This document shows positions 38,743-58,157 of a stretch of DNA of 64,000 nucleotides, one piece after another. Each line of letters starts with the position of its first letter. The first letter of the stretch is position 1. Under the pieces are notes generated by a model. The model was not told the DNA's origin. It made no database searches and saw only the letters and a list, made by a program, of their open reading frames with translations. Source of the stretch: a bacterium. Lineage in GTDB: Bacteria > Fidelibacterota > UBA2242. The position numbers were made by a program, and so were the translations under genes. The DNA is taken from assembly GCA_018824205.1 (NCBI GenBank), contig JAHJGX010000058.1:54366-118365 (forward strand), read 5' to 3'.

Positions 38743-39528
38743 ATGCTGGAATTCGATCAGATATATCACCAGGATTGCATTGCCGGGATGCCGCAGATGC
38801 TGGATAATTGCATTGACCTGATTGTCACCGATCCCCCCTTTGCCATCGATTTCAAAGCAGTGCGGGGAAACTATAATCGAAAGGCTTCCCGGGTGTTGGA
38901 GGGATACAATGAAATCACAAAAGCGGATTATTCCGGGTTTACGGTCAGTTGGCTGGAGCAGGCCTGGCGCATTCTGAAACCTACGGGCAGTATGTACGTA
39001 TTTTCCGGCTGGAACAACCTCAAGGATATTCTGGTGGCCCTGGATGAGATCGGTTTTATCACCATCAATCACATTATCTGGAAATATCAGTTCGGAGTGG
39101 TGACCCGGCGAAAATATGTCAGTTCCCACTACCATTGTCTTTACGTCTGTAAGGACGATAAACTGCGCCCCTTTTACCCCTTTTCCCGCTATCAGAAGGA
39201 TGACCGGGACAGCGCCGGCCGCAGTCAGCATTACCGTGACAAAGAGGACGTCTGGACGATCAAGCGGGAGTACTGGGCCGGTGATCAAAAAACCCCCACC
39301 AAACTGCCCCGGGAACTGATTGAGAAAATTTTGAACTATTCCAGCATCCCGGGGGATCTGGTTTGTGACCCCTTTCTCGGCTCGGGCCAGGTGGCCTTTA
39401 TCAGCCGCCTGATGCAGCGCCGCTATATCGGTTTTGAGATTAATAAAGAATACTACGATTTTGCTAAAGCCCGCCTGGACAGCGGCCAGTATCGTCTTAA
39501 AACGACCGATCAGGGAAATCCATTTTAG
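38743..39528 (+). CDS. site-specific DNA methyltransferase, beta-class N6A/N4C type (N6_N4_Mtase family)
   Basis: Catalytic motif IV DPPF near the N-terminus, and SAM-binding motif I (FLGSGQ) near the C-terminus. This is the beta-class order. 261 aa. Confidence 0.8.
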   Translation: MLEFDQIYHQDCIAGMPQMLDNCIDLIVTDPPFAIDFKAVRGNYNRKASRVLEGYNEITKADYSGFTVSWLEQAWRILKPTGSMYVFSGWNNLKDILVALDEIGFITINHIIWKYQFGVVTRRKYVSSHYHCLYVCKDDKLRPFYPFSRYQKDDRDSAGRSQHYRDKEDVWTIKREYWAGDQKTPTKLPRELIEKILNYSSIPGDLVCDPFLGSGQVAFISRLMQRRYIGFEINKEYYDFAKARLDSGQYRLKTTDQGNPF

Positions 39529-39536: not shown

Positions 39537-40520
39537 ATGGCAATACTATACAGTAGCAAGTGCCGGGACCGGCGACAGATTCTGGAATCCTTTTATCCTT
39601 TCACGAAACCCGCTGTGATTGAAGGGCTGATTATCGGCAATGATCTCGACGCTCTGCTGTCGGCGGCCCTGCTGAAGCAGCGCTACGGCTGGGATGTGGT
39701 GGCGGTTTACGACTATCGGAAACTCTGGGTGGACCAAAGGATTGCTGACAATGTGATTCAAAAACTGAAAAGCGGCGTCTATCTGGCTGTGGACCTGGAT
39801 ATCTACCGCAACGCTGTCCCCAGTATCGGTCATCATATTCTGCAACTCACTGAAAAAGACCGTCTGGAACAGCACGAGCAGACCCTGAATCCCAATCTCA
39901 TTTTCGGCGTGGACTGCCGGAATTTCCGGGCCAAGTATCCCCTGGGAACCATCCATTTTCTGCGCTGGCTCTTTGAAATGGAACTGGATCGCCGGGGCGA
40001 GCTGCTCTGCTGGCTGGCGGATTCCGCCTATATCAATGCCCAGAGCCATCGCTTTCGGGAAAATGTGTCCCATTGGCTCTACGAGTTCTTTGACTGGCCC
40101 CCTTTCTGGGAAATTTTCATCCTGCTGGATTCTGCGGATTATGAGGAACTGTTGGTCCGGGAGATTGGCCGGACTCTGGACAAGATCCTGATCACACCCC
40201 GGCCGGGACAGGTCAAATCCCGGCATAAATCCCTGAACGGCTGGCAGTGCCAGTGGTCGGATCCGGGAACCCAGGGGGAACAAATCCGGCAAATATTTGC
40301 CTTTATTCACGAACTCAGCGGCTGGCGGATTCCGGAATTGCCCAAGTTCTACAGCTGTATTACAGGCCAGCGGAAACGGATTAGCGTGGCGGAACTCCTG
40401 AAAGACTACGGAAGCCTGGATGAATTCCTAAATCGCGAGCATGTTTTTTCATATGCCTTTACCCATGCGCAGCTGCTGAATTATACTCAGTTTTCATCGT
40501 CTCCGGCCGGTAAAACCTAA
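39537..40520 (+). CDS. hypothetical protein (327 aa) immediately downstream of the DNA methyltransferase. Candidate cognate restriction endonuclease or specificity partner (no recognizable motif).
   Basis: Long ORF with coding-like composition. 8 nt downstream of the MTase stop on the same strand. Confidence 0.3.
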   Translation: MAILYSSKCRDRRQILESFYPFTKPAVIEGLIIGNDLDALLSAALLKQRYGWDVVAVYDYRKLWVDQRIADNVIQKLKSGVYLAVDLDIYRNAVPSIGHHILQLTEKDRLEQHEQTLNPNLIFGVDCRNFRAKYPLGTIHFLRWLFEMELDRRGELLCWLADSAYINAQSHRFRENVSHWLYEFFDWPPFWEIFILLDSADYEELLVREIGRTLDKILITPRPGQVKSRHKSLNGWQCQWSDPGTQGEQIRQIFAFIHELSGWRIPELPKFYSCITGQRKRISVAELLKDYGSLDEFLNREHVFSYAFTHAQLLNYTQFSSSPAGKT

Positions 40521-40674: not shown

Positions 40675-42807
40675 ATGAACAATTTTAAAGTGTCGATTTT
40701 AGTCGTTTTGTGTGTCGGATTGCTCGGTTCGCTGGCCCTGGCCGGACAGCACGACTATCCCAACTTCCCGCTGCACAACTGGGTCATGGTTGGTTTTCCG
40801 GTCACACCCACGGAGCAGAATCCCGATGCGGTCTGGGGGCCTTTTTTCGGCGGCAACCAGGGCAATGACAACGATGCTGATAATACGCTCTGGCGTTTTT
40901 CCCGTTGGCTGGCCCAGTACGACACCTATATCCGCTGGGGTGAATTAGACCGTGACACAGTCGGTGTTTTGACCGATTTTGGTGAACCCACCGCCATCAT
41001 CCCCGGCTGGGGTTACTGGTTCTATCAGAATCAGTTCAGTGATGTGACGTTTAATGTCAATGGGACCGAAGCCGACGACAGTGGTCCTTATTATATTCCC
41101 ATTGATCCGCCCCAGAACGGGCATCGCGGCCGTACCATGGTGGGCAACCCGTTTACCTTTCCCATTGACTGGAAAAATACCGAAGTGGTCATCGAGTCCG
41201 AAGAGATTGACACAGTGGTTTCTTTGATTGCGGCCAACGAGATGGGCCTGATCGATCAACATGCCTATCCCTGGAATGCGGGTCTGATGAACGGCGACAT
41301 CAACACCTATATCCCTCTGAATGCAACTGATGGTGGCGCGGTTCCGAAATGGCAGGGATTTTGGGTCGAACAACTCAATGAAAATGTAAATTATTACATC
41401 AAGTATAAGGTTGAACACACTCAGGGCGATGACAACTGCAAGTATCATGATGCCCATTCCGGTCATGTCAGTGAGAAAGATTATCTCGGTCAGGATGGCA
41501 TCCGTGAAACTGATCTCTTTACCATGGTGGTTGAAGATCCCAATGAGATCATTATAGTATCAACCCAGGCTCAGGGTTTTTCCAATGACGGCAGTTTCCA
41601 TTGGCCGGATCAGACCTATTTTCTGAACAATCAGGGCTTTGGCATTGAATTCATCAGCATGACTGTCGGGGCCGAGTATACTACCTATGAATTTACCGTA
41701 ACCGCGGAAGTTGACGACCCCAATTTTAAACAACGCATGATGCACGTCCACTTCTTCTTTGGGGATAACTCCAACGTGGTTTATCCGGCCACACCCAACC
41801 ATGGCAATGATGAACCCGGCAATGATGACAATCGCGGGAAGAACGATAATGGTAATGCCGCTGAGATTACGATCCTGCGGTCCACTGAAACAGTGGTCGG
41901 CCAGTCAACGAATGTTACGCTGCAACTCAAAGTACCACCCACGACTGTGGGCCTGGCCAAAGCGGCCGCTAAAGTAAGTCCGCGAGATGTGGTGGAAACC
42001 GTCAGCGACCGGGATTGGGTTATTCCGATGAGCATTGCCACAAGCGACGGCACCGTGAAGGACAACTTTAATGCGATTGGTGTTCTACAGGCTGCCTCCG
42101 ACGGTTACGATACTCATGATATTGCCCAGTGGACCCCCCAGGGAACATTCCTGGAAATCTATTTTCCTCACGATGACGTCAGCAAACCGCTGCATTACTG
42201 GTATGAAAAACCCAGCAGTGTCTGTTATGACATGCGGGCCGATTCGACCCACAAAGACTGGATTATGCGGGTTGCGGCCTATACCGATGTTGTAAGTCCT
42301 TTGTCAGTCCGTAATAAAACGGTGACCATCCGCTGGGATGCTTCCGAAGTCAATGCTGACTGGGAACTGCAGCTCCAGGCGGCCGATTATACCGTTCTGG
42401 TTGAGGATATGAAAACCGTCAGCGAATATACCTTTACCACGGCAGATAATAACTACAGCGTTCAGGATTTTGTTATTATGACGACATTTACACCGAACCT
42501 GAACAGTATTGAAGCACCACCGGTGGCGGAGACCTATGCTTTGCTGCAGAACTATCCCAACCCCTTTAACCCGACCACGACCATTCAGTATCGGATAACT
42601 CGGAACGAATGGGTACAACTGGCGATCTATAACCTGCAGGGTGAACTGGTAAAAACCCTCTGGTCCGGCGATAAATCAACCGGCGATTATCAGGTCCAAT
42701 GGAATGGGACCGATAATCAGGGACGGCCAGTGGCCAGCGGGGTCTATCTGACAAAACTGCTGACGCCGACAATGGCCCGTTCGAATAAAATGTTGTTACT
42801 TAAATAA
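40675..42807 (+). CDS. large secreted protein with a T9SS (Por) C-terminal sorting domain. Paralog 1, function unknown.
   Basis: Signal peptide (MNNFKVSILVVLCVGLLGSLALAG). C-terminal ~80 aa match the T9SS CTD pattern (NYPNPFNPTTTIQY...VYLTKL...). The start was reset to ATG 40675 with AAAGGGGG upstream. Confidence 0.7.
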   Translation: MNNFKVSILVVLCVGLLGSLALAGQHDYPNFPLHNWVMVGFPVTPTEQNPDAVWGPFFGGNQGNDNDADNTLWRFSRWLAQYDTYIRWGELDRDTVGVLTDFGEPTAIIPGWGYWFYQNQFSDVTFNVNGTEADDSGPYYIPIDPPQNGHRGRTMVGNPFTFPIDWKNTEVVIESEEIDTVVSLIAANEMGLIDQHAYPWNAGLMNGDINTYIPLNATDGGAVPKWQGFWVEQLNENVNYYIKYKVEHTQGDDNCKYHDAHSGHVSEKDYLGQDGIRETDLFTMVVEDPNEIIIVSTQAQGFSNDGSFHWPDQTYFLNNQGFGIEFISMTVGAEYTTYEFTVTAEVDDPNFKQRMMHVHFFFGDNSNVVYPATPNHGNDEPGNDDNRGKNDNGNAAEITILRSTETVVGQSTNVTLQLKVPPTTVGLAKAAAKVSPRDVVETVSDRDWVIPMSIATSDGTVKDNFNAIGVLQAASDGYDTHDIAQWTPQGTFLEIYFPHDDVSKPLHYWYEKPSSVCYDMRADSTHKDWIMRVAAYTDVVSPLSVRNKTVTIRWDASEVNADWELQLQAADYTVLVEDMKTVSEYTFTTADNNYSVQDFVIMTTFTPNLNSIEAPPVAETYALLQNYPNPFNPTTTIQYRITRNEWVQLAIYNLQGELVKTLWSGDKSTGDYQVQWNGTDNQGRPVASGVYLTKLLTPTMARSNKMLLLK

Positions 42808-42841: not shown

Positions 42842-42979
42842 ATGAAAGAGAAAATCTTAGAAAACGAAAAAGTCGATGTGAAAATTGAGTATGATGCGCC
42901 GCGTATTATTCAGAAGAGAGAAATCGTGATTGAATTGCAGACCAATTATATTCCCGATGAACCGCCGCCTCCTATGTGA
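42842..42979 (+). CDS. small ORF (45 aa) encoding a candidate RiPP precursor peptide with a lasso-type leader motif (YxxPRI...LQTN) and a variable C-terminal core (YIPDEPPPPM)
   Basis: Not in the ORF track (under 60 aa). ATG preceded by AAGGA and a 7-nt spacer. Shares motif Y-x2-P-R-I-x2-K-x4-I-[DE]-[LI]-Q-T-N at identical spacing with the second small ORF at 45460. Confidence 0.45.
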   Translation: MKEKILENEKVDVKIEYDAPRIIQKREIVIELQTNYIPDEPPPPM

Positions 42980-43038
42980 GAATAGTTGGGATTAATGAGA
43001 CATATTCAAATCATGAAACCTATGAAAGTGAGAATAAT

Positions 43039-45441
43039 ATGAAAACGAGAACATTTTTAACAATGACAGCAATCGGCGTGATGCTTCTGTCCGGTCTGGC
43101 ATTATCCCAGCAGACCATCACTTATGAGAATTTTCCGAAAGCCAAGATGATGCTGATCGGAATTCCGCTGAATTTTACGGACAGTGATCCGGGCGCAGTA
43201 CTGGAACCAGAGTTTGGCGAGCAAATCAGAGATGGTAGTATCTATCCCTACTGGCGCTTTTCCCGCTGGGATATTGGCGACCACACTTATTACCGCTATG
43301 GCGAAATGGAATTTACCTGGGATCACGATGCACAGAATTATAAGCCTGCAACAGAAAAGACCGAGCAGGGCAGTCCCCATGCCATTGAACCGGGCTATGG
43401 CTACTGGCTGGCCCAGAGTTCGGGCAATACTGTGGACACTTTATCGCTTACCGGTATACCCGCTGATCAAGATGCGCCGGTTTATGTGCCCGTTGATCCG
43501 CCGGAAACAGTTCAGGGACATGCCTATCCCGGAATCACCATGGTGTCGAATCCATTTCTGTATACCATTGACTGGGTAAATGCCTATTACCGGATAAATA
43601 GTGGCGATGAAGTCACGCTGGAGCAGGCCGTCAATATGGGATTGGTGTCCCAATATGCCTATCCCTGGGACGGCGCTCAGTACACTCCTTTTAATATGAC
43701 CGATGGAGGAAATCTGAAGATCTGGGACGGTTACTGGGTGGAACAGCTGAATCCCGAACCGACCGAATATGTGGTCTATGATGTGGCCTGTGACATTGAA
43801 AGCAGCGAAGGCGGCGGCGGGGAGTGCGGCGAATGTGACGGACAGGTTTCCTATCTGAAACTGCTATACAACGGTATTTATGACAATGCCAAGATTAAGG
43901 TTTATGATAACAAAAGTAATAAACTGTACTATGGTACTGTCCAAAAGGGCGGTGAATTTGAGTTTAGCGGAAAGCAGGGCGGCGAGCGGATGGGCCCGAA
44001 AATTAAGATTTACATCAGTAATGCCGATAAATGCAGCGGCTGCGGCGAAAATTTTTGTGAAATCCATACCAGCTGTTCCGTACCCATTGGAATTGGTCAG
44101 GTATGGGGGCCGTTTACCATTACCGCAGGCGCAAGCCGCAACGGCGGGGCTTTATGCCCGATCGGTGAAACCAATAAACCGATTATCAAATTTTATGATG
44201 CCGAAGTCAATGGTTCGGACAGCGATCTGGGCGAAGGCGGCGTGATTGAAACCGACCGGTTCATTATTTCCCTTTACAATGATGATGACGGTGAACTGTC
44301 TTTTAAAACCTTTACCGTGAACGATGATTCCTCAGCCTGGATTGCGCTGACTCAGGAGGGCACGGCCGTGTCCGATGGCCAGGGATTTACTGTCACTTTG
44401 ATCAGTGAATCCGAAGGCACCTATACCATTGATGTAGCCAGTACTGGATCTGCGGTATTGGAGGCAGTCAAGTTCCGTTTTGGCGATGATCAGACTCTTG
44501 ATTCACCGGAATGCGGCGAAACCTTTACTTCGACCCGGCAACTACTGGGCGGTGTACAGGTTTCAACACTTGAATTGAAAACCCCACCCACCAATGTGGG
44601 CGGTGGAAAACTGGCAAAGTCATCAGAAAAAATTCCTCATCCTTTGAAATCCGAATCGGTTGCCGAATGGATAGTACCAATAAGCGTGAGTAGCAGCAGC
44701 GGTGAACTGATCGATAGTTACAACGGCTTTGGCGTCAAAGAGGGCGCTTCGGCCACATTTGACCTGCTAGATGCCCGTAACTTTACGCCCAATCTGGATG
44801 CCTGGGTAGATATCTACTTCCCCCATCACAAAGAAAATGATCCGCTGAATTACTGGCCGCAAAAACCGATGAAAGCCGCCTATGATGTACGTCCGGAAGC
44901 CGATGTTATCTCCTGGGATATGGAAATGTCTTATGTTAATGCCGGCAGCCAGAAGTTTACGATCAACTGGGATGCCAGTCAATTCCCGGCGGATCTGGAA
45001 CTGACGTTTGTTGATTTTAGCACCGATGAACGAATTGATATGCTGACAGTTTCGGAATATGCGGTGACCACGCCGGCGGATCCCTACGGTACGCTTTATT
45101 TTGCCGTAGTGGCCGCTCTGCCCGAAGAGGCCGTTGGAATTGATCGTGATATCACCAAACCGGCGGAATTCCGTCTGCTGGCGAATTACCCGAATCCGTT
45201 CAATGCGACGACGCGACTTCTGTACACATTGCCGGAAGCTGCACAGGTAAAACTGACAATCTATAACCTGAACGGAACTTTGGTGAATACTCTGGTGAAT
45301 GGAATACAGCCGGCCGGTTATTACGGAATGGATTGGGATGGCCACGATCAGAGCGGCGCAATGGTCAGCACCGGCGTCTATATCTACCGGCTCCAGGCCA
45401 ATGGCCAGGTATCAACCCGCAAAATGCTACTAATGAAGTAA
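43039..45441 (+). CDS. large secreted protein with a T9SS C-terminal sorting domain. Paralog 2, function unknown.
   Basis: Signal peptide (MKTRTFLTMTAIGVMLLSGLALSQQ) and C-terminal T9SS CTD (NYPNPFNATTRLLY...VYIYRL...). Shares several conserved blocks with paralog 1 (NPF.[FY][TP]IDW, AYPW, YW[VE]EQLN, YFPH..x.PL.YW.[EQ]KP). Confidence 0.7.
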   Translation: MKTRTFLTMTAIGVMLLSGLALSQQTITYENFPKAKMMLIGIPLNFTDSDPGAVLEPEFGEQIRDGSIYPYWRFSRWDIGDHTYYRYGEMEFTWDHDAQNYKPATEKTEQGSPHAIEPGYGYWLAQSSGNTVDTLSLTGIPADQDAPVYVPVDPPETVQGHAYPGITMVSNPFLYTIDWVNAYYRINSGDEVTLEQAVNMGLVSQYAYPWDGAQYTPFNMTDGGNLKIWDGYWVEQLNPEPTEYVVYDVACDIESSEGGGGECGECDGQVSYLKLLYNGIYDNAKIKVYDNKSNKLYYGTVQKGGEFEFSGKQGGERMGPKIKIYISNADKCSGCGENFCEIHTSCSVPIGIGQVWGPFTITAGASRNGGALCPIGETNKPIIKFYDAEVNGSDSDLGEGGVIETDRFIISLYNDDDGELSFKTFTVNDDSSAWIALTQEGTAVSDGQGFTVTLISESEGTYTIDVASTGSAVLEAVKFRFGDDQTLDSPECGETFTSTRQLLGGVQVSTLELKTPPTNVGGGKLAKSSEKIPHPLKSESVAEWIVPISVSSSSGELIDSYNGFGVKEGASATFDLLDARNFTPNLDAWVDIYFPHHKENDPLNYWPQKPMKAAYDVRPEADVISWDMEMSYVNAGSQKFTINWDASQFPADLELTFVDFSTDERIDMLTVSEYAVTTPADPYGTLYFAVVAALPEEAVGIDRDITKPAEFRLLANYPNPFNATTRLLYTLPEAAQVKLTIYNLNGTLVNTLVNGIQPAGYYGMDWDGHDQSGAMVSTGVYIYRLQANGQVSTRKMLLMK

Positions 45442-45459
45442 AGATTGGATCAGTATTTT

Positions 45460-45582
45460 ATGAATCGTGACCAGCATACACATTTGAAAATGCCCTATAT
45501 ACCGCCCCGAATTACGGAAAAAACGAAACTGAAGATTGACATCCAGACAAATTCAACCGCTGATGGCGGGTATCTTTCCTGA
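45460..45582 (+). CDS. small ORF (40 aa) encoding a second candidate precursor peptide with the same leader motif (YIPPRI...IQTN) and a different core (STADGGYLS)
   Basis: Not in the ORF track. Lies 18 nt downstream of T9SS paralog 2 and 20 nt upstream of the S24 peptidase gene. The leader is homologous to the 42842 peptide and the core is divergent. Confidence 0.45.
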   Translation: MNRDQHTHLKMPYIPPRITEKTKLKIDIQTNSTADGGYLS

Positions 45583-45602
45583 AAGGATGCACAGAATCTG
45601 AT

Positions 45603-45998
45603 TTGAAAGAAACCATCCAGATACAATCTCACGGAAATAGCATGCTCCCGGTGATTCAGCCGGGAGCAGCGCTGTCTATAGAGCCCGGAACTTATGGAGA
45701 GCAGAATCCCAAAGCCGGTGAGATTATTGCTTTTCGGAGAGGCGAGGGGCTGGTCTGTCACCGATTTTACGGGACCATCGGGATTAGCCGCCGACGCTAT
45801 GGGATTGAGAAAGGCGACCGCAACCGGATTGCCGGACTGTTTCGCCTGGAGGATTACATCGGGCGCCTGATAGCAGTGGATGCACGGGCTGCCGCCGAAC
45901 TGTTCCGAATTGTTAAAAAACCCTCTGTATTTGTACTATTTGGGGGCCTGATCCGGGAGCATCTGGACTGGATCTGCCGGAAATCGCCCACCAGCTAA
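45603..45998 (+). CDS. S24/S26-type (LexA/signal-peptidase-like) Ser-Lys peptidase, standalone
   Basis: GNSMLP motif (catalytic Ser context) near the N-terminus, 131 aa. TTG start. Confidence 0.55.
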   Translation: MKETIQIQSHGNSMLPVIQPGAALSIEPGTYGEQNPKAGEIIAFRRGEGLVCHRFYGTIGISRRRYGIEKGDRNRIAGLFRLEDYIGRLIAVDARAAAELFRIVKKPSVFVLFGGLIREHLDWICRKSPTS

Positions 45999-46059
45999 CT
46001 CAATTACATTTTTAAAAACTTTTCTTTTCCTCTTCAATTTTCCTGATTATATTAATTCA

Positions 46060-47232
46060 ATGACCGATTATAAAGTCAAATTATTGACACTGTGCCGAAT
46101 TATCAGCGGAATTCCTGTTTCTAAAGACAGTCTCTCAGGGAGTGTATCTGGAGATAATCGTCCACTGCTTGATCTGCTGCAGTATCACCAGGTTGCGGCC
46201 CTGGCCTATTATTACCGGAAGCCCCTGGCCGATACCGGAGTCCACTTTGATCCGGAGACACTGGCCAACTTAAAAAGCTATACCCTGTTGAACATCAGCC
46301 GGGTGATGGTCTATGAACATTATTTGAAGCATCTGGATGATCTGATGCAGTCCTATTCCGTTGATTATCGTCTGCTCAAGGGCATTGTAACAGCCAAATC
46401 CGTCTATCCCGAGGATTACCTGCGGGCCTTCGGGGACGCGGATATTTTAATCCGGCCGGAGAATCTGAAAACCGTTGAAGCCCTGCTGGAAAAGGACAGT
46501 TTCAAGCATGCCGACGATCTCTACCGGGTTTTTCCCGATGAGATTATTCAAAAATACTCCTTTGCCCAGCACTTTCTACGCAGTGAGCCGAACAATGTGG
46601 CCGTGGATTTGCACCTGAATATGAGTAGCCGCCTGCACCCCTTTCAGTTTGATTCCGATGATTTCTGGGACAGCAGCATCTCCTTTCAGCTGGATGGACA
46701 CGAACTGAAGACTTTTGATCCGGAACACCAGGGTGTGTATGCCATTTACCATGCCTTTAAGCATTATTTTTTCAAATTGATCTGGTTTATTGATGCCTTT
46801 CTGCTGCTGGACCGGGCCGACCTGGACCGGAGGAAATTTCAGGCCCTGATAAAAAAATACAAGCTATCAAAGTTGCTAAATTATTACGCATCCATCACTC
46901 TGGAACTGTTCGGGCGCCTGCCGGCTGTGATTGGGGACTATAGAATCGAAGACCGGGAAGCACACAGCCTGATCAACAGCCAGGCGATTCTGTCCGGGTT
47001 TTTACCCTATTCGCCTTCCCGGGCCCGCTTGCTGCTGCCCATGTATTATCTGAAAGGTCCATTCGTACGTTTTGGTTTTCTGTGGCGGCAACTCTTTCCG
47101 CCCATGGAGACCGTCAGGGATTTTTATGTGGGTAAAAATTCCGGGAAAGGTGTCTTCAGGTATGCTAAATTACGCTGCAAGGCCATTTCAGACCTCTGCT
47201 TAAATAAAACCAAAGAGGAGTACTCAAGTTGA
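46060..47232 (+). CDS. nucleotidyltransferase family protein (NTP_transf_5 / 'uncharacterized nucleotidyltransferase' type found in lasso-peptide-like clusters)
   Basis: 390 aa with a Pol-beta-like GD..D..I core (FGDADILI) and a family-typical C-terminal helical region. Confidence 0.6.
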   Translation: MTDYKVKLLTLCRIISGIPVSKDSLSGSVSGDNRPLLDLLQYHQVAALAYYYRKPLADTGVHFDPETLANLKSYTLLNISRVMVYEHYLKHLDDLMQSYSVDYRLLKGIVTAKSVYPEDYLRAFGDADILIRPENLKTVEALLEKDSFKHADDLYRVFPDEIIQKYSFAQHFLRSEPNNVAVDLHLNMSSRLHPFQFDSDDFWDSSISFQLDGHELKTFDPEHQGVYAIYHAFKHYFFKLIWFIDAFLLLDRADLDRRKFQALIKKYKLSKLLNYYASITLELFGRLPAVIGDYRIEDREAHSLINSQAILSGFLPYSPSRARLLLPMYYLKGPFVRFGFLWRQLFPPMETVRDFYVGKNSGKGVFRYAKLRCKAISDLCLNKTKEEYSS

Positions 47233-47489
47233 AGTACGTACATTGCAACAATATCGATTGGAAAGAATTTGATGACGAGAGTGTGCTCCTCAATCTCTCC
47301 ACAGGCTACTATTTTCGCCTGAACCCGGTGGGCACTTTTATCTGGCCGCTGATCAGCCGGGAGCATACTATTAGCGGCATTGCCGATCGCGTGGTGGAAA
47401 AATTTGACGTGTCCCAACACCAGGCTAAAACCGATATGCACGATTTTATCGAACAGTTGCTGGCAGAACAGCTCATCCAAAAAGCCTGA
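47229..47489 (+). CDS. PqqD family protein (RiPP recognition element, peptide chaperone)
   Basis: 86 aa with the typical PqqD/RRE signature (ESVLLNLSTGYYFRLNPVGTFIW). Overlaps neighbours at both ends. Confidence 0.75.
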   Translation: MKYVHCNNIDWKEFDDESVLLNLSTGYYFRLNPVGTFIWPLISREHTISGIADRVVEKFDVSQHQAKTDMHDFIEQLLAEQLIQKA

Positions 47490-48445
47490 TGCAGATGCCA
47501 GATGATTATCGCTTTACTGAAGAACTACCCTTTTTAGATTTCCAGATTCGCTGGCATTCCAATCAGCAGCTGCCCATCGATATCCTGGGGGAACAGTTTC
47601 TCTACAGCAGCCTGTCAGCCGGCGCCGATGTCCGGGACAGTTTTGATTTTTACATCGATATAATCGAGGATTCCGACAGCGATGCCTCATGGAATACGGC
47701 GCTCCAGCACCGTTACGATGCTAATGAAAAATTGCTGTATTTAAGCTATCTCGACGGGGCCATCCAGGTTACCGTGGATTATGGGCAGAAGCGGGTCACG
47801 GCCAAAATCATGGAGCGGGCCCTGGTTTACCGGGCGGCGCTGGGCAACTGGGTGCTCACGATCCCCCTGAGTGAACTGCTGAAACTGCACGGCATCTACC
47901 TGATGCATGCGGCCTGCCTGGTGAAGGATGGCAAGGGGATTCTGTTCGCCGGCCGCTCGGGCGTCGGTAAAACCACCCTGGCCATCGGTCTTCTGACCAT
48001 GGGCTGGCAGCTGGTCTCCGACGATGAAATCTTCCTGCAGTCCAACCCGGAACTGCTGGCACACGGAGGCCCCGAACGGGCCAAAGTCAGCTGGCCTACC
48101 TGGCGGCGCTTCAGTTATTACCTGGGGGAGCAGGACCGTTATAACGGCAAGCAAATTATCCATCTGGGCGATCATTTTCCGGGACAGGTGACTAATCGTC
48201 ACGCCATTACGGCGGTCTGCTTTGTGGGGCAGTCTGACCGCGTAACGATCTGTCCCCTGGATCCCATGGATGCCTACCGGCGGCTCCTGTCGGTGGCCTT
48301 TCTGACGTCGGAGCCGTCCCTGACCCGGCAGAACAATGATTTTCTCTATCGCTTCAGCCGGGAAATTCCGGCCTATGGACTGCAGACCGGCCTGGATTTC
48401 AAGGCCCTGGATGCCCACCTGGCCCAATCTATCCTGCATCAATAA
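47489..48445 (+). CDS. HprK-related kinase (HPr kinase C-terminal-domain-like P-loop protein)
   Basis: Walker A GRSGVGKTTLA embedded in an HprK_C-like fold (ILFAGRSGVGKTTLAIGL..VSDD), 318 aa. Confidence 0.7.
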   Translation: MQMPDDYRFTEELPFLDFQIRWHSNQQLPIDILGEQFLYSSLSAGADVRDSFDFYIDIIEDSDSDASWNTALQHRYDANEKLLYLSYLDGAIQVTVDYGQKRVTAKIMERALVYRAALGNWVLTIPLSELLKLHGIYLMHAACLVKDGKGILFAGRSGVGKTTLAIGLLTMGWQLVSDDEIFLQSNPELLAHGGPERAKVSWPTWRRFSYYLGEQDRYNGKQIIHLGDHFPGQVTNRHAITAVCFVGQSDRVTICPLDPMDAYRRLLSVAFLTSEPSLTRQNNDFLYRFSREIPAYGLQTGLDFKALDAHLAQSILHQ

Positions 48446-48598
48446 ATTTTCTTTGCATTTCTAAAAAAATCAATTTAAATCAAATAACTAACGGGCAAGT
48501 TCTATAAAGAGGTTTCGAGGTGCTTAAACAGTGAGTTTGAGCAGTTCCTTGAAACCTTAGATTATAGCCCCTATGCAAATAGGAGTATGGAGGGGATT

Positions 48599-48757
48599 AT
48601 GGTTCATCGTAAATGCCCCCGTTGCGGGGCGCAGCAGTTTCGCAAAGTGCGCCGCAAACGCTGGATGTGTTATCTGCCCTTTTCAAGCTGCTGGGAATGT
48701 TACTGTAAATTTCTGCTGGTGTTTGGGATTATTGTCTGGCGGCACAATTATACCTGA
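48599..48757 (+). CDS. possible small Cys-rich zinc-ribbon/TM protein (52 aa: MVHRKCPRCGAQQFRKVRRKRWMCYLPFSSCWECYCKFLLVFGIIVWRHNYT)
   Basis: Alternative frame to the ORF-track 48573-48782 ORF. CPRCG...C..C.C arrangement plus a hydrophobic tail. GGAGGGG lies 5 nt upstream. Confidence 0.2.
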   Translation: MVHRKCPRCGAQQFRKVRRKRWMCYLPFSSCWECYCKFLLVFGIIVWRHNYT

Positions 48758-49300
48758 TGCCGGGATTTTGGAAACACCGTAATGTGACGGAAATTACAGA
48801 TATTGGTACTGAACATTTGGAAAGAATCTAACTATGCGCGGGGAGACTGTTTAATTAATATGAAGAAGATATTGGAATTGTTTATTTTACTTAGCAATGC
48901 CGGCGATTTATTGCCGCTACTATAGTCTTCGTAAATAGTGCAAATATTATTGCGAAAACCGCATATTATTAGTAACATAAGCACAGATTGTAGAGACTTG
49001 AAACGGGATTCATTTATTGATATTTTTTTTACTCCGATCTAATATAAATTATTGAAGATTCCCTTTGGGATATGACGAAAAAGATTTGGACATTCGGTAA
49101 AATCGCGGCATTGAATAACGCCTTTAACGGAGATGTATTATCAGGTGATTTTTATCACTGGATTTAAATAAAAATAAGTAGAAATTATAGGTTCTACAAT
49201 TTGCCCGCTCAGCCCATGTAGCTGAGGGGGCGAAGCCCTGCCCCGGCGGATGCAATTCCCCGGCCGGAAAAATGCGTAAGTAATTAATAATAGGAAAGAT

Positions 49301-50437
49301 ATGAAAGTACCCCTGCTGGATCTGAAAGCGCAACTGGACACAATCCGCGAAGACGTGAAAGAAGTTGTCAACGAGGTTCTGGAGTCCACCCGCTATATCA
49401 TGGGGTCCAAGGTTACGGAGCTGGAAGAACAGATTGCGGCCTATTGCGGCGCCCGCTACGGGATCGGCGTATCTTCAGGGACCGATGCGCTGCTGATCGC
49501 CCTGATGGCCCTGGATCTGCAACCCGGTGACCTGGTTCTCACCACACCCTACTCTTTTTTCGCCACCGCCGGCGTCGTCTCCCGGCTGAATGCCATTCCC
49601 GTCTTTGTGGATATTGATCCCGGAACCTATAATATCGATCCCGGGCAGATAGCCCAATGGTTTGCCGACAATCCGGATAAAATTGAGCGGGTCAAGGCCA
49701 TTATTCCCGTGCATCTCTACGGCCAGTGCGCCGATATGGACCCGATTCTGGAACTGGCCGAAACATATAATATTCCCGTCATTGAAGACGCGGCCCAGGC
49801 CATCGGCGCCGGATATCCTTCTAAGAATGGATTGAAACGGGCCGGATCCATGGGTAGCATGGGCTGTTTTTCCTTTTTCCCCAGTAAGAACCTGGGGGGG
49901 ATCGGTGACGGCGGCATGGTGACCACCAACGATGCGGCCCTGGCGGAAAAACTGGTCAAACTCCGCAACCACGGTTCCCATCCCAAGTATTACCACGCTC
50001 TAATCGGCGGCAATTTCCGCCTGGACCCGATTCAGGCGGCGGTCCTGTCGGTAAAATTAAAACACCTGGATGCCTGGCATGCCGGGCGGCAGGCCAATGC
50101 GGCCTATTACGATGCGCATCTGAATGTCCCGGGACTGACAAAACCGATGGTTGCCTATCAGCGGGACTACCATATTTACAACCAGTATATTCTGTCAGTG
50201 CCGGAACGCCGGGACGCCCTGGTGGAATACCTGCATGCCCGGGACATTGGGTGTGAAGTCTACTACCCGGTGCCCTTTCATCAGCAGGAATGTTTTCAGT
50301 ACCTGGGCTATAAAACCGGGGATTTCCCCCATAGTGAATTCGCCGCTGAGCATACCATCGCCCTGCCTATCTATCCGGAACTGACCGATATGATGCAGCA
50401 GTATGTGATTGAAAAGATTCAAGAATTTTATCAATAG
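49301..50437 (+). CDS. DegT/DnrJ/EryC1/StrS family PLP-dependent sugar aminotransferase (WbpE-like)
   Basis: N-terminal IPFLDLKAQ-like start, conserved Lys region and sugar aminotransferase fold. 378 aa. Confidence 0.9.
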   Translation: MKVPLLDLKAQLDTIREDVKEVVNEVLESTRYIMGSKVTELEEQIAAYCGARYGIGVSSGTDALLIALMALDLQPGDLVLTTPYSFFATAGVVSRLNAIPVFVDIDPGTYNIDPGQIAQWFADNPDKIERVKAIIPVHLYGQCADMDPILELAETYNIPVIEDAAQAIGAGYPSKNGLKRAGSMGSMGCFSFFPSKNLGGIGDGGMVTTNDAALAEKLVKLRNHGSHPKYYHALIGGNFRLDPIQAAVLSVKLKHLDAWHAGRQANAAYYDAHLNVPGLTKPMVAYQRDYHIYNQYILSVPERRDALVEYLHARDIGCEVYYPVPFHQQECFQYLGYKTGDFPHSEFAAEHTIALPIYPELTDMMQQYVIEKIQEFYQ

Positions 50438-50518
50438 AGGGCTGATATTTTTGCATCAACATCAGCCATGTCTGGGGCAACAAAAAATTAGCTCAAAAAA
50501 ATAAAATAGAAGGCGCGC

Positions 50519-50743
50519 ATGGAAAAAATCATCAAAATCCATATTGAGCAATTACCGGAAGGCCTGTTTCTCGCAACGTCTGATGAGATTCAGGGCCTGG
50601 TGGCACAGGGTCGTACAATTAATGAAACTCTGGAAATTGCTCGGGATGTGGCCAAAAAATTATTGGAAGCTCAATCAGATTTATCGGAAACATTAACGAT
50701 TTTGAAAAAACCGATCGATATGTCAATCGTATTGGGCATCTGA
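50519..50743 (+). CDS. hicB: HicB family antitoxin (type II TA)
   Basis: 74 aa UPF0150/HicB-like N-terminal domain (IKIHIEQLPEGLFLATSDEIQGLVAQGRTINETLEIA). Confidence 0.6.
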   Translation: MEKIIKIHIEQLPEGLFLATSDEIQGLVAQGRTINETLEIARDVAKKLLEAQSDLSETLTILKKPIDMSIVLGI

Positions 50744-50968
50744 ATGGGAAGACTGGCAAATCACTCTTACCGGAAAGTCGTCGAGAAATTAAAGAAATTA
50801 GGATTTCAATTCTATCGCCAGGCTGCCGGCAGCCACGAAATCTGATTTAATCCCAATAGCAATCGATACACTACGATCCCAAATCACCCTGGCGATATAC
50901 CCGAAGGAACAATTAGGGCTATCTTAAAACAAGCACAAATATCTATCGAGAAATTCCTTAAAACCTGA
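50744..50968 (+). pseudogene. hicA: HicA family mRNA-interferase toxin gene interrupted by an in-frame TGA at 50843-50845. N-terminal 33 aa, then 40 more codons in the same frame.
   Basis: MGRLANHSYRKVVEKLKKLGFQFYRQAAGSHEI-TGA-FNPNSNRYTTIPNHPGDIPEGTIRAILKQAQI... matches HicA on both sides of the stop. Starts 1 nt after the hicB stop. Confidence 0.55.
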
Positions 50969-51053
50969 ATAGTATAAACAGTATTATCCAAATCCGAACA
51001 GACAAGCATCACTTAGATTTAATAGCATTTAAGCAATAAAAATCTGGTTTATT

Positions 51054-51647
51054 ATGAGTATAAAAAAAGATTTCTTTGTTCACGAATCTGCCTATGTGGA
51101 TGATAATGTGACGATCGGCGCGGGGACCAAAATCTGGCACTTTTCCCACATTCAGTCAGGTTCGAAAATCGGCCGGAAGGTCTCCATTGGCCAGAATGTC
51201 AATGTGGGCAATAATGTGAGAATTGGTAATTTTGTGAAGATTCAGAACAATGTCTCGGTCTACGAAGGGGTGACCCTGGAGGATTATGTCTTCTGCGGCC
51301 CCTCCATGGTATTTACCAACGTGATCGATCCCCGCTGCAAATATCCCCAGCGGGGGGCGGAATTTTACCACAAGACCCTGGTGAAAACCGGGGCCTCCAT
51401 CGGTGCCAATGCCACGATCGTTTGCGGCAATATCGTTGGACGGCATGCCTTTATCGGCGCCGGGGCGGTGGTAACCAAAGATGTACCCGATTACGCCCTG
51501 ATGCTGGGAGTGCCAGCGAAACGGGTCGGCTGGGCCTGCGAGTGCGGTGAAATTTTACCGAAGTTTGACCAGCACGTGAACTGTCCACGCTGCGGGATAA
51601 CGTATAAGTTACAGGGAGAAATTCTTATCGCAAAGAGCGCAGAGTAG
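51054..51647 (+). CDS. hexapeptide-repeat sugar N-acetyltransferase (WbpD-like UDP-2-acetamido-3-amino-2,3-dideoxy-uronate N-acetyltransferase family)
   Basis: Left-handed beta-helix hexapeptide repeats (IGxxxxI) throughout, 197 aa. Confidence 0.85.
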   Translation: MSIKKDFFVHESAYVDDNVTIGAGTKIWHFSHIQSGSKIGRKVSIGQNVNVGNNVRIGNFVKIQNNVSVYEGVTLEDYVFCGPSMVFTNVIDPRCKYPQRGAEFYHKTLVKTGASIGANATIVCGNIVGRHAFIGAGAVVTKDVPDYALMLGVPAKRVGWACECGEILPKFDQHVNCPRCGITYKLQGEILIAKSAE

Positions 51648-51670
51648 GCAAAAAACGCAAATCACGATGA

Positions 51671-51726
51671 GATTATTAAATAACTTCGCGGATATTGGAA
51701 CCTTAGCGACCTCTGAGAGGTAAAAA
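51671..51726 (+). repeat. repeat family A, copy 1. Upstream leader element containing the palindromic core ACCTCTGAGAGGT.
   Basis: 19/21 identity with 54396-54416 (aaccttagcgacctctgagag vs aaccttggcgacctctgcgag) plus flanking similarity. Immediately precedes a start codon. Confidence 0.5.
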
Positions 51727-52107
51727 ATGCATGAAAATGAGATATCTAAAATCATTCTCGATTGTGCATTTAAAATCCATACAGACCTTGGTCTTGGATT
51801 ATTTGAATCAGGATATGAGGAAATTTTATATAACGAGCTTGCTAACAAGCAGCTTATCATTGAACGTAAGAAGGTGCTTGCCATTCAATATGGTGGAATT
51901 TAAGTCGAAAATGCGTTTCGGATTGATTTAGTTGTAAATAATAAAGTGATTGTTGAAAAAAAATCAATAGAATCCATTTTACCAGTGCCTAAAAAGCAGT
52001 TATTGACGTATCTTAAATTGTCGGACTTGAAGCTGGGCCTATTAATTAATTTTAATGAAGCCTTCCTGAAAAACGGTATTACAATAATAGTCAATAATCT
52101 GACGTAG
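51727..52107 (+). pseudogene. GxxExxY family protein gene with an in-frame TAA at 51901-51903
   Basis: MHENEISKIILDCAFKIHTDLGLGLFESGYEE...AIQYGGI-TAA-VENAFRIDLVVNNKVIVEKKSIESILPVPKKQLLTYLKLSDLKLGLLINFN. Full-length GxxExxY homology across the stop. Confidence 0.6.
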
Positions 52108-52144
52108 CGAACTTTGTTAACATTGCGTACTTTGCGAAAGATAT

Positions 52145-52237
52145 TATGAAAAACATAGCCCTTATCGGCTGCGGGTGGATTGCCGGGAAACACCTGGAAT
52201 CCATTGCCCCGTTACAGCCTGAAGAGCGCGGACTTTA
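52145..52237 (+). pseudogene. 5' fragment (30 codons) of a Gfo/Idh/MocA oxidoreductase gene paralogous to the 53121 gene
   Basis: MKNIALIGCGWIAGKHLESIAPLQPEERGL* versus MKTIALLGCGRISGKHLESIAQL at 53121. A 27-nt identical stretch (ccgggaaacacctggaatccattgccc) is present. Confidence 0.5.
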
Positions 52238-52290
52238 GCTCGCTCCGGCGGGAAGAAGCCAAAACAGTGCTTTTTGAAACGAACAAAAAG

Positions 52291-52584
52291 ATGATCAACC
52301 GTTATCTCAACGAAATCCGAAAAATAATCGAGAAAGAAATGCAGGATGAAAATGTTGCCATAGCACTTTTTGGCTCTTTTGCCATGGGCACTCAGCAGCT
52401 TGCATCGGATATTGATATTGCACTGATTCCCAAAGGGAAATTGAATAAATCCAAAGTTGCCGATTTACGGGAAAAACTGACCGAACTCACGGTTCCTTAT
52501 TCCGTCGACCTGGTTGATTTTGACCGGGTCTCAGAACAATTCAAGAAAATAGCGTTAAGAGACGCCCAATGGTGGAGGAAGTAG
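52291..52584 (+). CDS. nucleotidyltransferase (MNT-type antitoxin, Pol-beta superfamily)
   Basis: GSxxxG...DxD motif (FGSFAMGTQQLASDIDIAL). The start was reset to MINRY (ATG 52291). Overlaps the downstream HEPN gene. Confidence 0.7.
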   Translation: MINRYLNEIRKIIEKEMQDENVAIALFGSFAMGTQQLASDIDIALIPKGKLNKSKVADLREKLTELTVPYSVDLVDFDRVSEQFKKIALRDAQWWRK

Positions 52585-52973
52585 CCGTGCAGATTATTGT
52601 TGAAAAATTGAAGCAGGCCAAAAATGCGCTGATCACTCTTGAAGAAGCATTGAATGCGGATTTCTCTCGGTTTGTTCAGGATGCTGCCATCCGGCGGTTT
52701 GAATATACCGTGGAAGCGGTCTGGAAGCTGTTGCAGGTCTATCTGAAAGAATCGGAAGGGTTAATCTGTGCTTCGCCTAAATCTGCTCTACGGGACGCCA
52801 AAAAAGTCGGTTTGTTAAATGATTCCGAGACCGAGCGGGCATTAGAAATGATCGATGACCGCAATTTAACATCCCATACGTATCACGCGGAAATTGCGCA
52901 GGCTCTGTTTAAACGCTTAGCTTCCTACTCAGAACTGATGAAACATGTTCTAGAAAGAATTGAGAAAAGCTAA
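52569..52973 (+). CDS. HI0074-family nucleotidyltransferase substrate-binding protein (HEPN/HepT-like toxin component)
   Basis: 134 aa all-alpha protein of the HI0074 type. 16-nt overlap with the MNT gene. Confidence 0.65.
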   Translation: MVEEVAVQIIVEKLKQAKNALITLEEALNADFSRFVQDAAIRRFEYTVEAVWKLLQVYLKESEGLICASPKSALRDAKKVGLLNDSETERALEMIDDRNLTSHTYHAEIAQALFKRLASYSELMKHVLERIEKS

Positions 52974-53120
52974 AACCGCTGGAACTGAGCGGAGCCTGTT
53001 TTCTCAATTGAAACCATTTATATGATTATGTAACTGTCAATGCGACATCGTATAATCGGGTCCAATCCAGTCAGAAATTACCAAGCAAGCATCATCCAAC
53101 TTTATAGACGAGATTAATTC

Positions 53121-54149: not shown

Positions 54150-54192
54150 AAAATTCTCGCAAAGACGCGGAAGTGACGGAGGACGCAGATTA

Positions 54193-54312
54193 AATGAAAT
54201 TTCAAAGATTATCCTGGTTGCCGCGAAGAAAATTTCTATCGATTTGGGACCGGGATTATTTGAATCTGTTTACGAAGAATTACTAGAGTATCGATTAAGA
54301 CAAATAAATTGA
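54193..54312 (+). pseudogene. N-terminal fragment (39 codons, no start codon) of a GxxExxY family gene
   Basis: NEISKIILVAAKKISIDLGPGLFESVYEELLEYRLRQIN* matches the conserved GxxExxY N-terminus (GxxExxY = GLFESVY). Confidence 0.4.
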
Positions 54313-54364
54313 AAGAGATATTTCTCCAGAAGGACCCAGAAAAGTTAGAGAGTGCTAATAAAAT

Positions 54365-54432
54365 GATAATTTTAAATGACTTTGCGGACTTAAAAACCTT
54401 GGCGACCTCTGCGAGAAATCAAAAGGGAATTT
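54365..54432 (+). repeat. repeat family A, copy 2, immediately upstream of the nucleotide-sugar dehydrogenase start
   Basis: See copy 1. gataattttaaatgactttgcggacttaaaaaccttggcgacctctgcgag. Confidence 0.5.
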
Positions 54433-56355: not shown

Positions 56356-56620
56356 ATATCAGGAAAATTTGAAACGCATGACCCGCTTCAATGAATGGGA
56401 GGAGCGCTCGCGCAGTCAATTGACGGTGCAAGCCAAACTCGATCAGTTTCTGGTCCTCTATGGACTCTGGGATTTCGTTCCGGAAAATATCCGGGAAAAA
56501 GTCCACGCTGAACATGTGGCGGCCCTCTGCCGGGTCCAAAAACGTCTGAAGGAAGCCGGTGAATTGCGAAAATTCAATAAGCAATTAAATCAGGAAAACA
56601 AGCAAAGGGAAATGAAGTGA
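56345..56620 (+). CDS. hypothetical small protein (91 aa) overlapping the upstream NTase-like gene by 11 nt
   Basis: ORF with charged helical character, translationally coupled to 55786-56355 and to gmd. Confidence 0.3.
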
Positions 56621-58154: not shown

Positions 58155-58157
58155 TCA

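Follow-up and report, generated by a model that had tools for sequence, protein, structure and literature searches.

The closest described counterparts of the gene cassette analysed here are the clusters for linear polyphosphorylated peptides (LPPs), which were reported by Popov et al. (Nat Commun, May 2026, PMC13381572) with Paenibacillus alginolyticus DSM5050 (lppA-K-B-S-D-N) as the experimental system. The cassette was found on contig JAHJGX010000058.1 of a member of the Fidelibacterota, in a 64-kb stretch of DNA that is called the window below. It comprises two genes for small peptides, P1 and P2, and the genes for a peptidase, a nucleotidyltransferase (NTase), a discrete PqqD-type RiPP recognition element (RRE; RiPP, a peptide made by the ribosome and modified post-translationally) and an HprK-like kinase. 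It is probably an LPP-type, i.e. linear, leader-dependent and kinase-associated, RiPP maturation system. A preliminary description of the locus had proposed a different, unrecognised class of modified peptide, a view that the publication of the LPP family has overtaken.

LPP precursors carry the motif YxxPxVLxHQxIxFETxxS, and the junction of leader and core in LppA is FET|AQS. The kinase LppK adds up to four phosphates to core Ser3 and does not accept the exchange S3T. The peptidase LppS, for which Ser29, His68 and Asp93 are all required in vitro, cleaves after Thr(-1); it does so only when the precursor is presented by the RRE protein LppB, and poorly when the precursor is unphosphorylated. 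In the LppB structure Asp70 forms a hydrogen bond with the leader Tyr, Asn33 fixes the Pro kink and Phe74 holds the leader. LppN had no detectable effect, and the final product and the role of LPPs are still unknown. Among homologues of signal peptidase I the LPP peptidases form cluster 1 of a sequence similarity network, and the LPP RREs form a monophyletic clade. LPP clusters lie within capsular polysaccharide loci, two-thirds of them lack a lasso cyclase, and the family was stated to be restricted to Bacillota, with a patchy distribution and gain and loss in Bacilli (PMC13381572). For comparison, the LPP protein sequences were taken from Supplementary Data 1 of that study. The second group of relatives is formed by the kinase-type lasso peptide clusters. 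Lasso kinases are able to phosphorylate a phosphate oxygen, and in pseudomycoidin the enzyme PsmN adds a hexose to the phosphate (PMC8498205).

All six open reading frames (ORFs) named in the preliminary description were present. They are given here with the putative binding and cleavage block of P1; coordinates are positions in the window.

42842..42979 (+): P1 precursor gene, 45 aa, recognised from ORF and sequence, orthologues, purifying selection and a 13-cluster family; layout with variable N-terminus, predicted leader Y17-D-A-P-R-I...I-E-L-Q-T34 and predicted core N-Y-I-P-D-E-P-P-P-P-M
42890..42943 (+): putative RRE-binding and cleavage block of P1, YDAPRIIQKREIVIELQT, from pattern match and by-eye alignment with LppA
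45460..45582 (+): P2 precursor gene, 40 aa, ATG start; predicted leader YIPPRITEKTKLKIDIQT, predicted core NSTADGGYLS with Ser2, Thr3 and a C-terminal Ser
45603..45998 (+): S26B-type (SipW/Sec11-like, LppS-like) Ser/His peptidase, 131 aa, TTG start
46060..47232 (+): PF14907 (NTP_transf_5) nucleotidyltransferase, counterpart of LppN and PsmN
47229..47489 (+): discrete PqqD-type RRE, counterpart of LppB and of lasso B1 proteins
47489..48445 (+): HprK-like P-loop kinase, counterpart of LppK by family and fold

The four enzyme genes follow P2 on one strand with gaps of 20 and 61 nt and then two overlaps, the start of the RRE gene overlapping the NTase stop and its own stop overlapping the kinase start. 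The peptidase gene is located 1.2 kb upstream of the RRE gene within one operon-like block. A promoter and terminator scan of the region from 36 to 49.5 kb gave no signal above chance and is therefore uninformative on operon structure; an Rfam scan of the window gave no match. An identical kinase was present on several metagenome contigs and in the NCBI metagenome-assembled genome (MAG) GCA_018822525.1, and the relatives carried the label Fidelibacterota or Candidatus Neomarinimicrobiota. For comparison the loci L007, L008, L009/L010 and L011, with kinases 40-63% identical to that of the window, and L044-L050, obtained through relatives of the peptides, were used. Wherever enough sequence of a Fidelibacterota locus was available, cassette and peptide genes occurred together, even where the kinase was only about 40% identical.

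P1 and P2 have the block Y-x-x-P-R-I-x-x-K-x-x-[IL]-x-I-[ED]-[LI]-Q-T-N in common. That two small ORFs share such a leader block was already noticed in the preliminary description, and a relaxed form of the pattern indeed had exactly two matches in the six-frame translation of the window and none in 200 shuffles. Over the 29 conserved codons of P1, synonymous and non-synonymous differences stood at 16:4 between the window and L008 and at 15:3 between L009 and L011, while P2 was less constrained (8-9 synonymous, 5-7 non-synonymous). Orthologues of P1 were called as 45-aa genes in all related loci. Homologous cassettes had been expected beforehand to carry such small ORFs, and these were found in every related locus, at corresponding positions. 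P1 and P2 are genuine conserved coding genes. A search of 1.84 billion representative proteins with the P1/P2 profile, of the kind suggested earlier for finding further precursors, yielded only 13 clusters (50% identity), all of 40-56 aa, and the cassette accompanied them in the related loci with enough sequence. Neither peptide matched a family in NCBIfam or Pfam, and the profile matched no chain in the PDB, the LppA leader chain included.

The variable part of P1 was not where it had been supposed. In the P1 family about 16 N-terminal residues vary, the sequence from the Tyr onward is conserved and the tail is nearly invariant, so that the idea of a hypervariable core has to be given up: the consensus is Y-x-x-P-x-[IV]-[ILV]-x-[KRQ]-x-x-[ILV]-x-[IVA]-[DEN]-L-x-T-[NGS]-x-[LIM]-P-D-E-P-P-P-P-[LMI]-COOH, and the tail PDEPPPP[LMI] is near-invariant across the 13 clusters. 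P2-type tails are variable. Both peptide copies carry the PDEPPPP tail in the deeper lineages L009, L011 and L044. The second copy reads N-S-[TV]-[AT]-D-G-G-x-x-S after divergence in the window lineage and has become other sequences elsewhere; P2-type orthologues ending in DGG[YA][LH]S were found, and the C-terminal Ser is kept in three clusters. The cores of P1 and P2 differ because the two genes are diverged paralogues. Among the LPP cores, short ones such as KASGNDNGGGDGGGPGGNFWS are similar to that of P2 (NST...DGG...S). The P2 core has Ser2 and Thr3 and no Ser at core position 3, and judged by its residues P2 (N-S-T-...-S) does fit the acceptor pattern of LPPs and lasso kinases as a putative substrate.

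The RRE gene matched the PqqD family of Pfam with an E-value of 7.4e-18. Its best NCBIfam model was lasso_PqqD_Bac, with 59.6 bits against a cutoff of 80. The protein aligned with LppB without gaps over 85 residues (E 7e-13), and a search of the PDB returned TbiB1 (1e-9), LppB (9x8z, 2e-6) and PbaB1 (9x90, 2e-5). Equivalents of the leader-contacting residues D70, N33 and F74 of LppB were conserved in all eight Fidelibacterota RREs, and the LppB residues at the interface with LppS, Glu11, Leu22 and Lys31, were likewise kept in 8/8 as D/E, L and R. PbaB1, a lasso RRE that prefers Trp, differs at the positions of Asp70, Asn33 and Lys31 and has Q and G at the first two. In the by-eye alignment of the window leader with the LPP motif, Y, P, [VI], [LI], I, [FI] and [ED] were in register. 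The RRE thus appears equipped for a Tyr-type YxxP leader and is its putative binder. The earlier proposal that a lasso-type YxxP leader would be read by the adjacent PqqD-type RRE agrees with the homologous LPP system (PMC13381572) and with the retained contact residues.

A similar leader would be expected if the locus were part of a split lasso cluster, with P1 and P2 as lasso precursors, the cyclase C and the protease B2 encoded elsewhere in the genome, and the kinase and NTase as tailoring enzymes. The YxxPx[IL] element, the Thr that stands two positions ahead of the divergence of P1 and P2, the lasso B1 models and TbiB1 as best curated matches of the RRE, and the kinase and PF14907 enzyme, both known lasso tailoring genes (PMC8498205), all speak for it. 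No match to PF00733 and no ORF of at least 300 aa with an SGGxDS motif was found in the 64 kb, nor did such an SGGxDS ORF occur in the flanks of the related loci L001-L015. Neither a cyclase nor a transglutaminase-like ORF was found in up to 10 kb of flanking sequence of L007-L011 and L013-L015 (SGGxDS scan, with called-gene Pfam lists for some) or near L044-L046 (called-gene Pfam lists only). The larger ORFs of the window contained no Pfam match to a transglutaminase-like B2 protease, so that the absence of both lasso enzymes from the window, as described before, is borne out. A dedicated Ser/His peptidase, the putative leader protease, occupies the place of B2. The predicted cores of the window measure 9-11 residues, against about 14 or more in lasso peptides, and their Asp or Glu stands at positions 4-6 and not at 7, 8 or 9, which rules out a macrolactam ring of any known size. 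On the window and the flanks searched, a split lasso cluster is therefore extremely improbable.

The peptidase matched Peptidase_S24 of Pfam weakly (19.4 bits, cutoff 23.3) and the NCBIfam model sigpep_I_arch with an E-value of 1.2e-5. BLASTP with LppS gave 30% identity over 87 residues (E 6e-7) with the Ser and His residues aligned. An AlphaFold2 model (pLDDT 77) had its best PDB matches in SpsB, the LexA C-domain and human SEC11C (probability about 1, E about 0.02). Its motifs G-[NDK]-S-M-L-P, [VI]-C-H-R and E-[KR]-G-D (GNSM...VCHR...EKGD in the window) are those of the Ser/His (S26B, SipW/Sec11) type, and the Ser/Lys mechanism assumed at first does not apply. The candidate catalytic residues Ser13 (GNSM) and His53 (VCHR) align with those of LppS and are invariant, Asp72 (EKGD) is conserved, and in an alignment of nine sequences that included LppS the elements G-x-S-M-x-P, H-R and G-D were invariant. 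The Ser motif lies upstream of the ATG used by most gene callers, in frame and conserved in all loci, even at one where the peptidase gene was not called. Since the catalytic Ser precedes the usual ATG, the TTG at 45603 is the likely start. The role of a leader peptidase, proposed for this enzyme before, is plausible from its homology to LppS and the retained Ser and His; for LppS itself the role is experimental (PMC13381572).

The kinase matched Hpr_kinase_C (PF07475) with 33.7 bits, cutoff 33.3, and had a precomputed match to PF27840 (ScmC). It has the P-loop G155-R-S-G-V-G-K-T-T, the motif S177-D-D-E and an ScmC-type N-terminal domain; P-loop and SDDE were intact in 18/18 aligned homologues. 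Its AlphaFold2 model (pLDDT 88) matched the PEPCK and HPrK/P folds. The NTase belongs to NTP_transf_5 (PF14907, E 1.2e-38), was conserved in all related loci and had no relative in a sequence search of the PDB. Both enzymes had been named as accessory genes of lasso clusters, which is correct (PMC8498205). As regards the family searches that had been suggested, PF14907, PqqD and, barely above its cutoff, Hpr_kinase_C were recovered; Peptidase_S24 stayed below threshold and the HPr-rel models below their cutoffs.

HPr-rel systems are often found near exopolysaccharide loci, and the preliminary description had likened the locus to such three-gene systems. With the HPr-rel-A/B models (TIGR04352, TIGR04353, TIGR04355) the kinase obtained 41.0 and 42.6 bits where 200 are required. 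TIGR04353 was absent from the NCBIfam matches of the window RRE, and PqqD_rel_X gave no match. The SynChlorMet models ScmC and ScmD (TIGR04249/04248), with cutoffs of 125 and 100 bits, gave scores of 32.3 and 49.7, and Pfam scans found no radical SAM gene, as a partner of ScmE/F type, in the window. Both assignments were rejected. Essentially nothing was found in the literature on SynChlorMet and PF14907.

From these comparisons the following pathway is proposed. P1 and P2 would be ribosomal precursors, and the RRE would bind the knob Y-x-x-P-x-[IV] (Y17/P20/I22 of P1, Y13/P16/I18 of P2) as an added beta-strand. The sheet of RRE and leader could then offer the junction [DE]-[LI]-x-Thr to the Ser13/His53 peptidase. 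The leader would most likely be cut after the invariant Thr, so that T occupies -1 and a hydrophobic residue -3, just as they do in F-E-T|; this would release NYIPDEPPPPM from P1 and NSTADGGYLS from P2. A cut after QTN, as suggested earlier, appears less likely by analogy with LppA (FET|AQS). The HprK-like kinase may phosphorylate the linear precursor near the junction before cleavage; plausible acceptors in P2 would be Ser2/Thr3 or the C-terminal Ser, and none can be identified for P1. The PF14907 enzyme may decorate the phosphate in the manner of PsmN in pseudomycoidin (PMC8498205), and the product would remain linear. A linear, probably phosphorylated product had been predicted before. This prediction matches the LPPs (PMC13381572), but phosphorylation is doubtful for P1, because its core lacks a conserved hydroxyl residue.

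A rather different reading of the small ORFs is that they are cis-acting regulatory leader peptides, in which ribosome stalling at the polyproline stretch DEPPPP-stop, dependent on elongation factor P, would tune the translation or transcription of the downstream gene and no stable peptide would be formed. PPPP is a stalling motif. Each of the ORFs precedes a gene of the same strand at a distance of 20-60 nt, and the conserved C-terminal 29 or so residues, behind a variable N-terminus, correspond approximately to the length of the ribosomal exit tunnel. However, the peptide in front of the peptidase has no polyproline in the window, L007, L008, L013, L047 and L049 and yet keeps YxxP...QT, and P1 is followed by different genes, in the window by that of surface protein B described below, in L049 by P2 and in L046 by the peptidase gene. 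The conserved block is moreover the motif bound by the RRE family, whose residues for Tyr and Pro contact are kept, and no terminator or attenuator signal above chance was seen. Regulatory ORFs are thus a very unlikely explanation.

Several results weigh against the assignment of the cassette to an LPP-type system. In P1-type cores position +3 is I, L or M, and Ser, Thr or Tyr is not conserved anywhere; both cores of L011, NVLPDEPPPPL and GVLPDEPPPPL, are entirely free of hydroxyl residues although the L011 kinase is intact; polyphosphorylation of Ser3, the defining LPP modification, can therefore not apply there. In the peptidases of the window, P0064, L009 and L011 the column of LppS Asp93 holds Gly or Arg, and an acid at GD+6 is also missing from the enzymes of L044 and L046. 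An acid at this position (GD.{5}[DE]) occurred in 11/15 ORFs similar to signal peptidase I (SpI) from other phyla, among the matches listed. The Fidelibacterota peptidases have a clade-specific invariant Glu in [IY]-E-[KR]-G-D, three residues before the Asp of G-D, and the enzyme might operate as a Ser/His dyad or with Glu69. Its identity to LppS (24%) is in the range of that to the SpI of Kuenenia (27%), an archaeal SpI (24%) and SpIs of other clusters (18-27%), and the lasso RRE TbiB1 outscores LppB as a match of the window RRE. As the RRE is nearer to TbiB1 and the peptidase no nearer to LppS, common descent with the LPPs of Bacillota, as opposed to parallel assembly from lasso-type parts, is not established. 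Finally, Pfam scans found no ABC exporter in the window; GxxGxGK[ST] occurred in only two ORFs of at least 150 aa, the kinase and FtsK.

Upstream of and between the peptide genes lie genes for two proteins with the C-terminal domain (CTD) of cargo of the type IX secretion system (T9SS), for which association with the cassette is the only link:

40675..42807 (+): T9SS-CTD surface protein A, before P1 (start also given as 40597)
43039..45441 (+): T9SS-CTD surface protein B, DUF7467, between P1 and P2

The two are paralogous to each other (E 4e-90), and as a peptide gene comes after either of them, the unit of T9SS protein and peptide looks like a tandem duplication. Most of their length is without any known domain, and for protein B a sequence search of the PDB gave only a match of FlgD to the C-terminal Ig-like domain. 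In the related loci the recurrent order was Wzz, N6_N4 methyltransferase, a 327-aa protein, T9SS-CTD protein, peptide, T9SS-CTD protein, peptide, peptidase, NTase, RRE and kinase. A peptide gene always stood directly upstream of the peptidase gene. The minimal form, in L046, where protein B is absent, consisted of one T9SS protein, one PDEPPPPL peptide, peptidase, NTase, RRE and kinase, followed by wzm-wzt; in L049 the two peptide genes were adjacent, with protein B not between them, and L008 was without the first T9SS protein. Across deep Fidelibacterota lineages the cassette occupied a single conserved chromosomal position (GcvT, FtsK, LolA, Wzz ... DegT ... MTHFR). It is vertically inherited in this phylum.

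The kinase gene is followed by a wzm-wzt pair of the ABC2 type in L009/L010, L011, L044/L045 and L046, and in L009, L010, L011 and L046 the wzm start overlaps the kinase stop. Searches of the window with tblastn found no remnants of wzm or wzt. The cassette itself lies between Wzz and Wbp-type sugar genes, beside the paralogous T9SS cargo genes. Both this fixed place in a surface-polysaccharide and T9SS locus and the operon link to Wzm/Wzt in sister lineages point to a function at the cell envelope.

The same context leads to a further alternative, according to which P1-type peptides are processed by RRE and peptidase, but the target of the kinase and NTase is the junction Thr, a carboxylate or a glycan, and the proline-rich peptide becomes covalently attached to the surface polysaccharide exported by Wzm/Wzt. 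It would explain a P1 core without hydroxyl acceptor beside an intact kinase, and it draws on the overlap of kinase stop and wzm start in the four loci named above and on the Wbp-type genes for UDP-ManNAc3NAcA immediately downstream. Chemistry known from relatives is compatible with it: LppN needs a partner that is still unknown and LPP clusters lie in capsule loci (PMC13381572), PsmN places a hexose on phosphate and lasso kinases can use a phosphate oxygen (PMC8498205). All of this support is genomic context, however; Pfam scans found no glycosyltransferase or ligase in the window, and the window lineage has neither wzm/wzt nor remnants of them. We know of no precedent for this alternative. 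Such different chemistry is considered unlikely, and its most specific form, in which the PDEPPPP[LM] peptide would be no free phosphopeptide but, once processed under guidance of the RRE, would be activated on the junction Thr or a carboxylate by the HprK/PEPCK-like kinase together with the PF14907 enzyme and joined to the Wbp-derived glycan exported by Wzm/Wzt, quite unlikely. If true, it would mean that a phylum with T9SS caps or links its envelope polysaccharide with a ribosomal peptide, and would give a hint to the role of LPPs in capsule loci. An LPP-type maturation system remains the preferred reading of the cassette.

For a survey of other phyla the kinase alignment was searched against one genome per species and 600 candidate stretches were evaluated; the locus counts are lower bounds, and RREs of distant loci were detected by phmmer with one sequence, which is insensitive. 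At least 28 kinase loci were found outside Fidelibacterota, in Chloroflexota, Actinomycetota, Terriglobia, Planctomycetota, Nitrospirota, Bacteroidales, Proteobacteria and others. In at least 17 of the 28 listed loci the kinase or RRE had small Y-x-x-P-x-[ILV] ORFs as neighbours, and in at least 15 an SpI-like ORF stood next to the kinase. A PqqD protein was detectable in at least 15 and a PF14907 gene in at least five, and Asn-synthase-like ORFs occurred in only two, among the matches listed. None of the non-Fidelibacterota loci tested reached a curated NCBIfam cutoff. Clusters of an SpI-like peptidase, an HprK-like kinase and YxxP peptides thus exist in many phyla according to this survey. 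RRE-linked SpIs of Planctomycetota, Acidobacteriota and Bacteroidota are contained in the SpI dataset of the LPP study and were not pursued there (PMC13381572).

Individual YxxPx[ILV] ORFs were located in L031 (9285-9479), L029 (9327-9554), L034 (2797-3009), L041 (1457-1687) and L036 (7647-7850 and 12996-13202), and several each in L024, L039 and L033. The hosts of these L024-L041 ORFs are Nitrospirota, Anaerolineales, Kuenenia, Planctomycetota, Chloroflexia and Actinomycetota, and the ORFs stand beside HprK-like kinases and SpI-like ORFs. The loci appear to be further uncharacterised LPP-like families. The loci L018-L041 and the sequence similarity network clusters 4, 6, 7 and 8 of the LPP study (PMC13381572) share with the Fidelibacterota cassette the HprK-like kinase, the SpI-like ORF, the YxxPx[ILV] ORFs and, mostly, the lack of a cyclase. 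They differ in cores that often contain Cys or follow AxA-like junctions, and none has a PDEPPPP tail. The Fidelibacterota cassette is thus one branch of a largely uncharacterised group spread over many phyla, of which the LPPs are the only member studied.

Some features of the surroundings were recorded separately. Between kinase and DegT gene (48446-49300) the window has an 855-nt spacer of low GC content (39%) where sister lineages hold wzm-wzt. A spacer block of about 100 nt upstream of DegT (about 49137-49243) was 77-81% identical in L007 and L008, and a second one (about 48614-48700) overlaps a Cys-rich ORF of 56 aa (48587-48757). Upstream, the N6_N4 DNA methyltransferase gene (PF01555) at 38743-39528 is adjacent to the gene for the 327-aa protein (39537-40520), which had no match in Pfam or the PDB. 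Both genes were found between Wzz and the first T9SS protein in L007, L008, L009, L011, L012, L044 and L050, and L046 keeps the methyltransferase only; this holds for every Fidelibacterota locus with an upstream flank. A fixed site across such divergence is unusual for a restriction-modification pair. In L012 (JADHWC010000119.1, 1-2531) the methyltransferase and 327-aa genes are followed by a 5' fragment of the gene for T9SS protein A that is fused to the 3' two-thirds of the kinase gene, a junction due either to misassembly or, in this one MAG, to loss of the entire peptide cassette.

Downstream, Wbp-type genes for a 2,3-diacetamido uronic acid occupy 49301-55731 and 56617-60256. The set comprises a DegT aminotransferase, a hexapeptide acetyltransferase, a GFO/IDH/MocA oxidoreductase, a UDP-sugar dehydrogenase and epimerases. 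Pfam scans of the larger ORFs of the 64 kb revealed neither a glycosyltransferase nor a flippase nor a polymerase. The Wbp-type sugar pathway also supplies the A-type lipopolysaccharide (A-LPS) anchor of T9SS cargo in Porphyromonas. Among the sugar-nucleotide genes lie pairs of the nucleotidyltransferase/HepT-like toxin-antitoxin type and PDDEXK_3 genes (52180-52973, 58722-59069, 57774-58154), insertions that vary among otherwise syntenic loci (L001 vs L003 vs L007). Upstream of the cassette an aerotolerance operon of the BatA-BatD type (VWA, TPR and BatD proteins; 23312-28655) is an ordinary feature.

Compared with known systems, the cassette shares with HPr-rel-A/B and SynChlorMet the pairing of an HprK-related P-loop protein with a PqqD-family protein. 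With the kinase-type lasso clusters (paeninodin, pseudomycoidin, Bsf; PMC8498205, PMC10368454) it has in common a B1-type RRE, a YxxPxL-type leader with a Thr near the junction, an HprK-like kinase, which in the lasso systems acts on the linear precursor, and a PF14907 enzyme. It differs from them in that C cyclase and B2 are missing, a Ser/His peptidase standing in the place of B2, and in cores that are too short and have no ring-forming Asp or Glu at positions 7-9.

The agreement with the LPP systems is wider. Both have an archaeal-type (SipW-like) Ser/His signal peptidase homologue co-located with a discrete PqqD-type RRE with the Tyr-binding Asp, an HprK-like kinase and a PF14907 NTP transferase. 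Both have small precursors with leaders of the type Y-x-x-P-x-[VI]-[LI]...[IV]-x-[FI]-[ED]...T, no macrolactam cyclase and a position in a surface-polysaccharide locus. In the window, however, the leader Thr stands two residues later (I-E-L-Q-T instead of F-E-T) and H-Q is replaced by K-R or K-T. The P1 core has 11 aa, is near-invariant and has no Ser3, whereas LPP cores are variable and 20-170 aa long, and the peptidase has no Asp93 equivalent. An MsbA-type exporter such as LppD is missing from the window, and sister lineages encode Wzm/Wzt. Paralogous T9SS cargo genes alternate with the peptide genes, and the phylum is Fidelibacterota, with vertically conserved synteny. New here are thus the LPP-type machinery in Fidelibacterota, its vertical inheritance, the near-invariant P1 core, the lack of an Asp93 equivalent and the coupling to Wzm/Wzt in sister lineages. 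LPP-type machinery, a class only months old and reported for Bacillota only, is thereby found in an uncultured phylum of the Fibrobacterota-Chlorobiota-Bacteroidota (FCB) group, and since two distant phyla have retained the link to surface polysaccharide, the view that the envelope is the site of action of these peptides is strengthened. A near-invariant core without hydroxyl acceptor and a peptidase without third catalytic residue are two testable departures from the published LPP mechanism.

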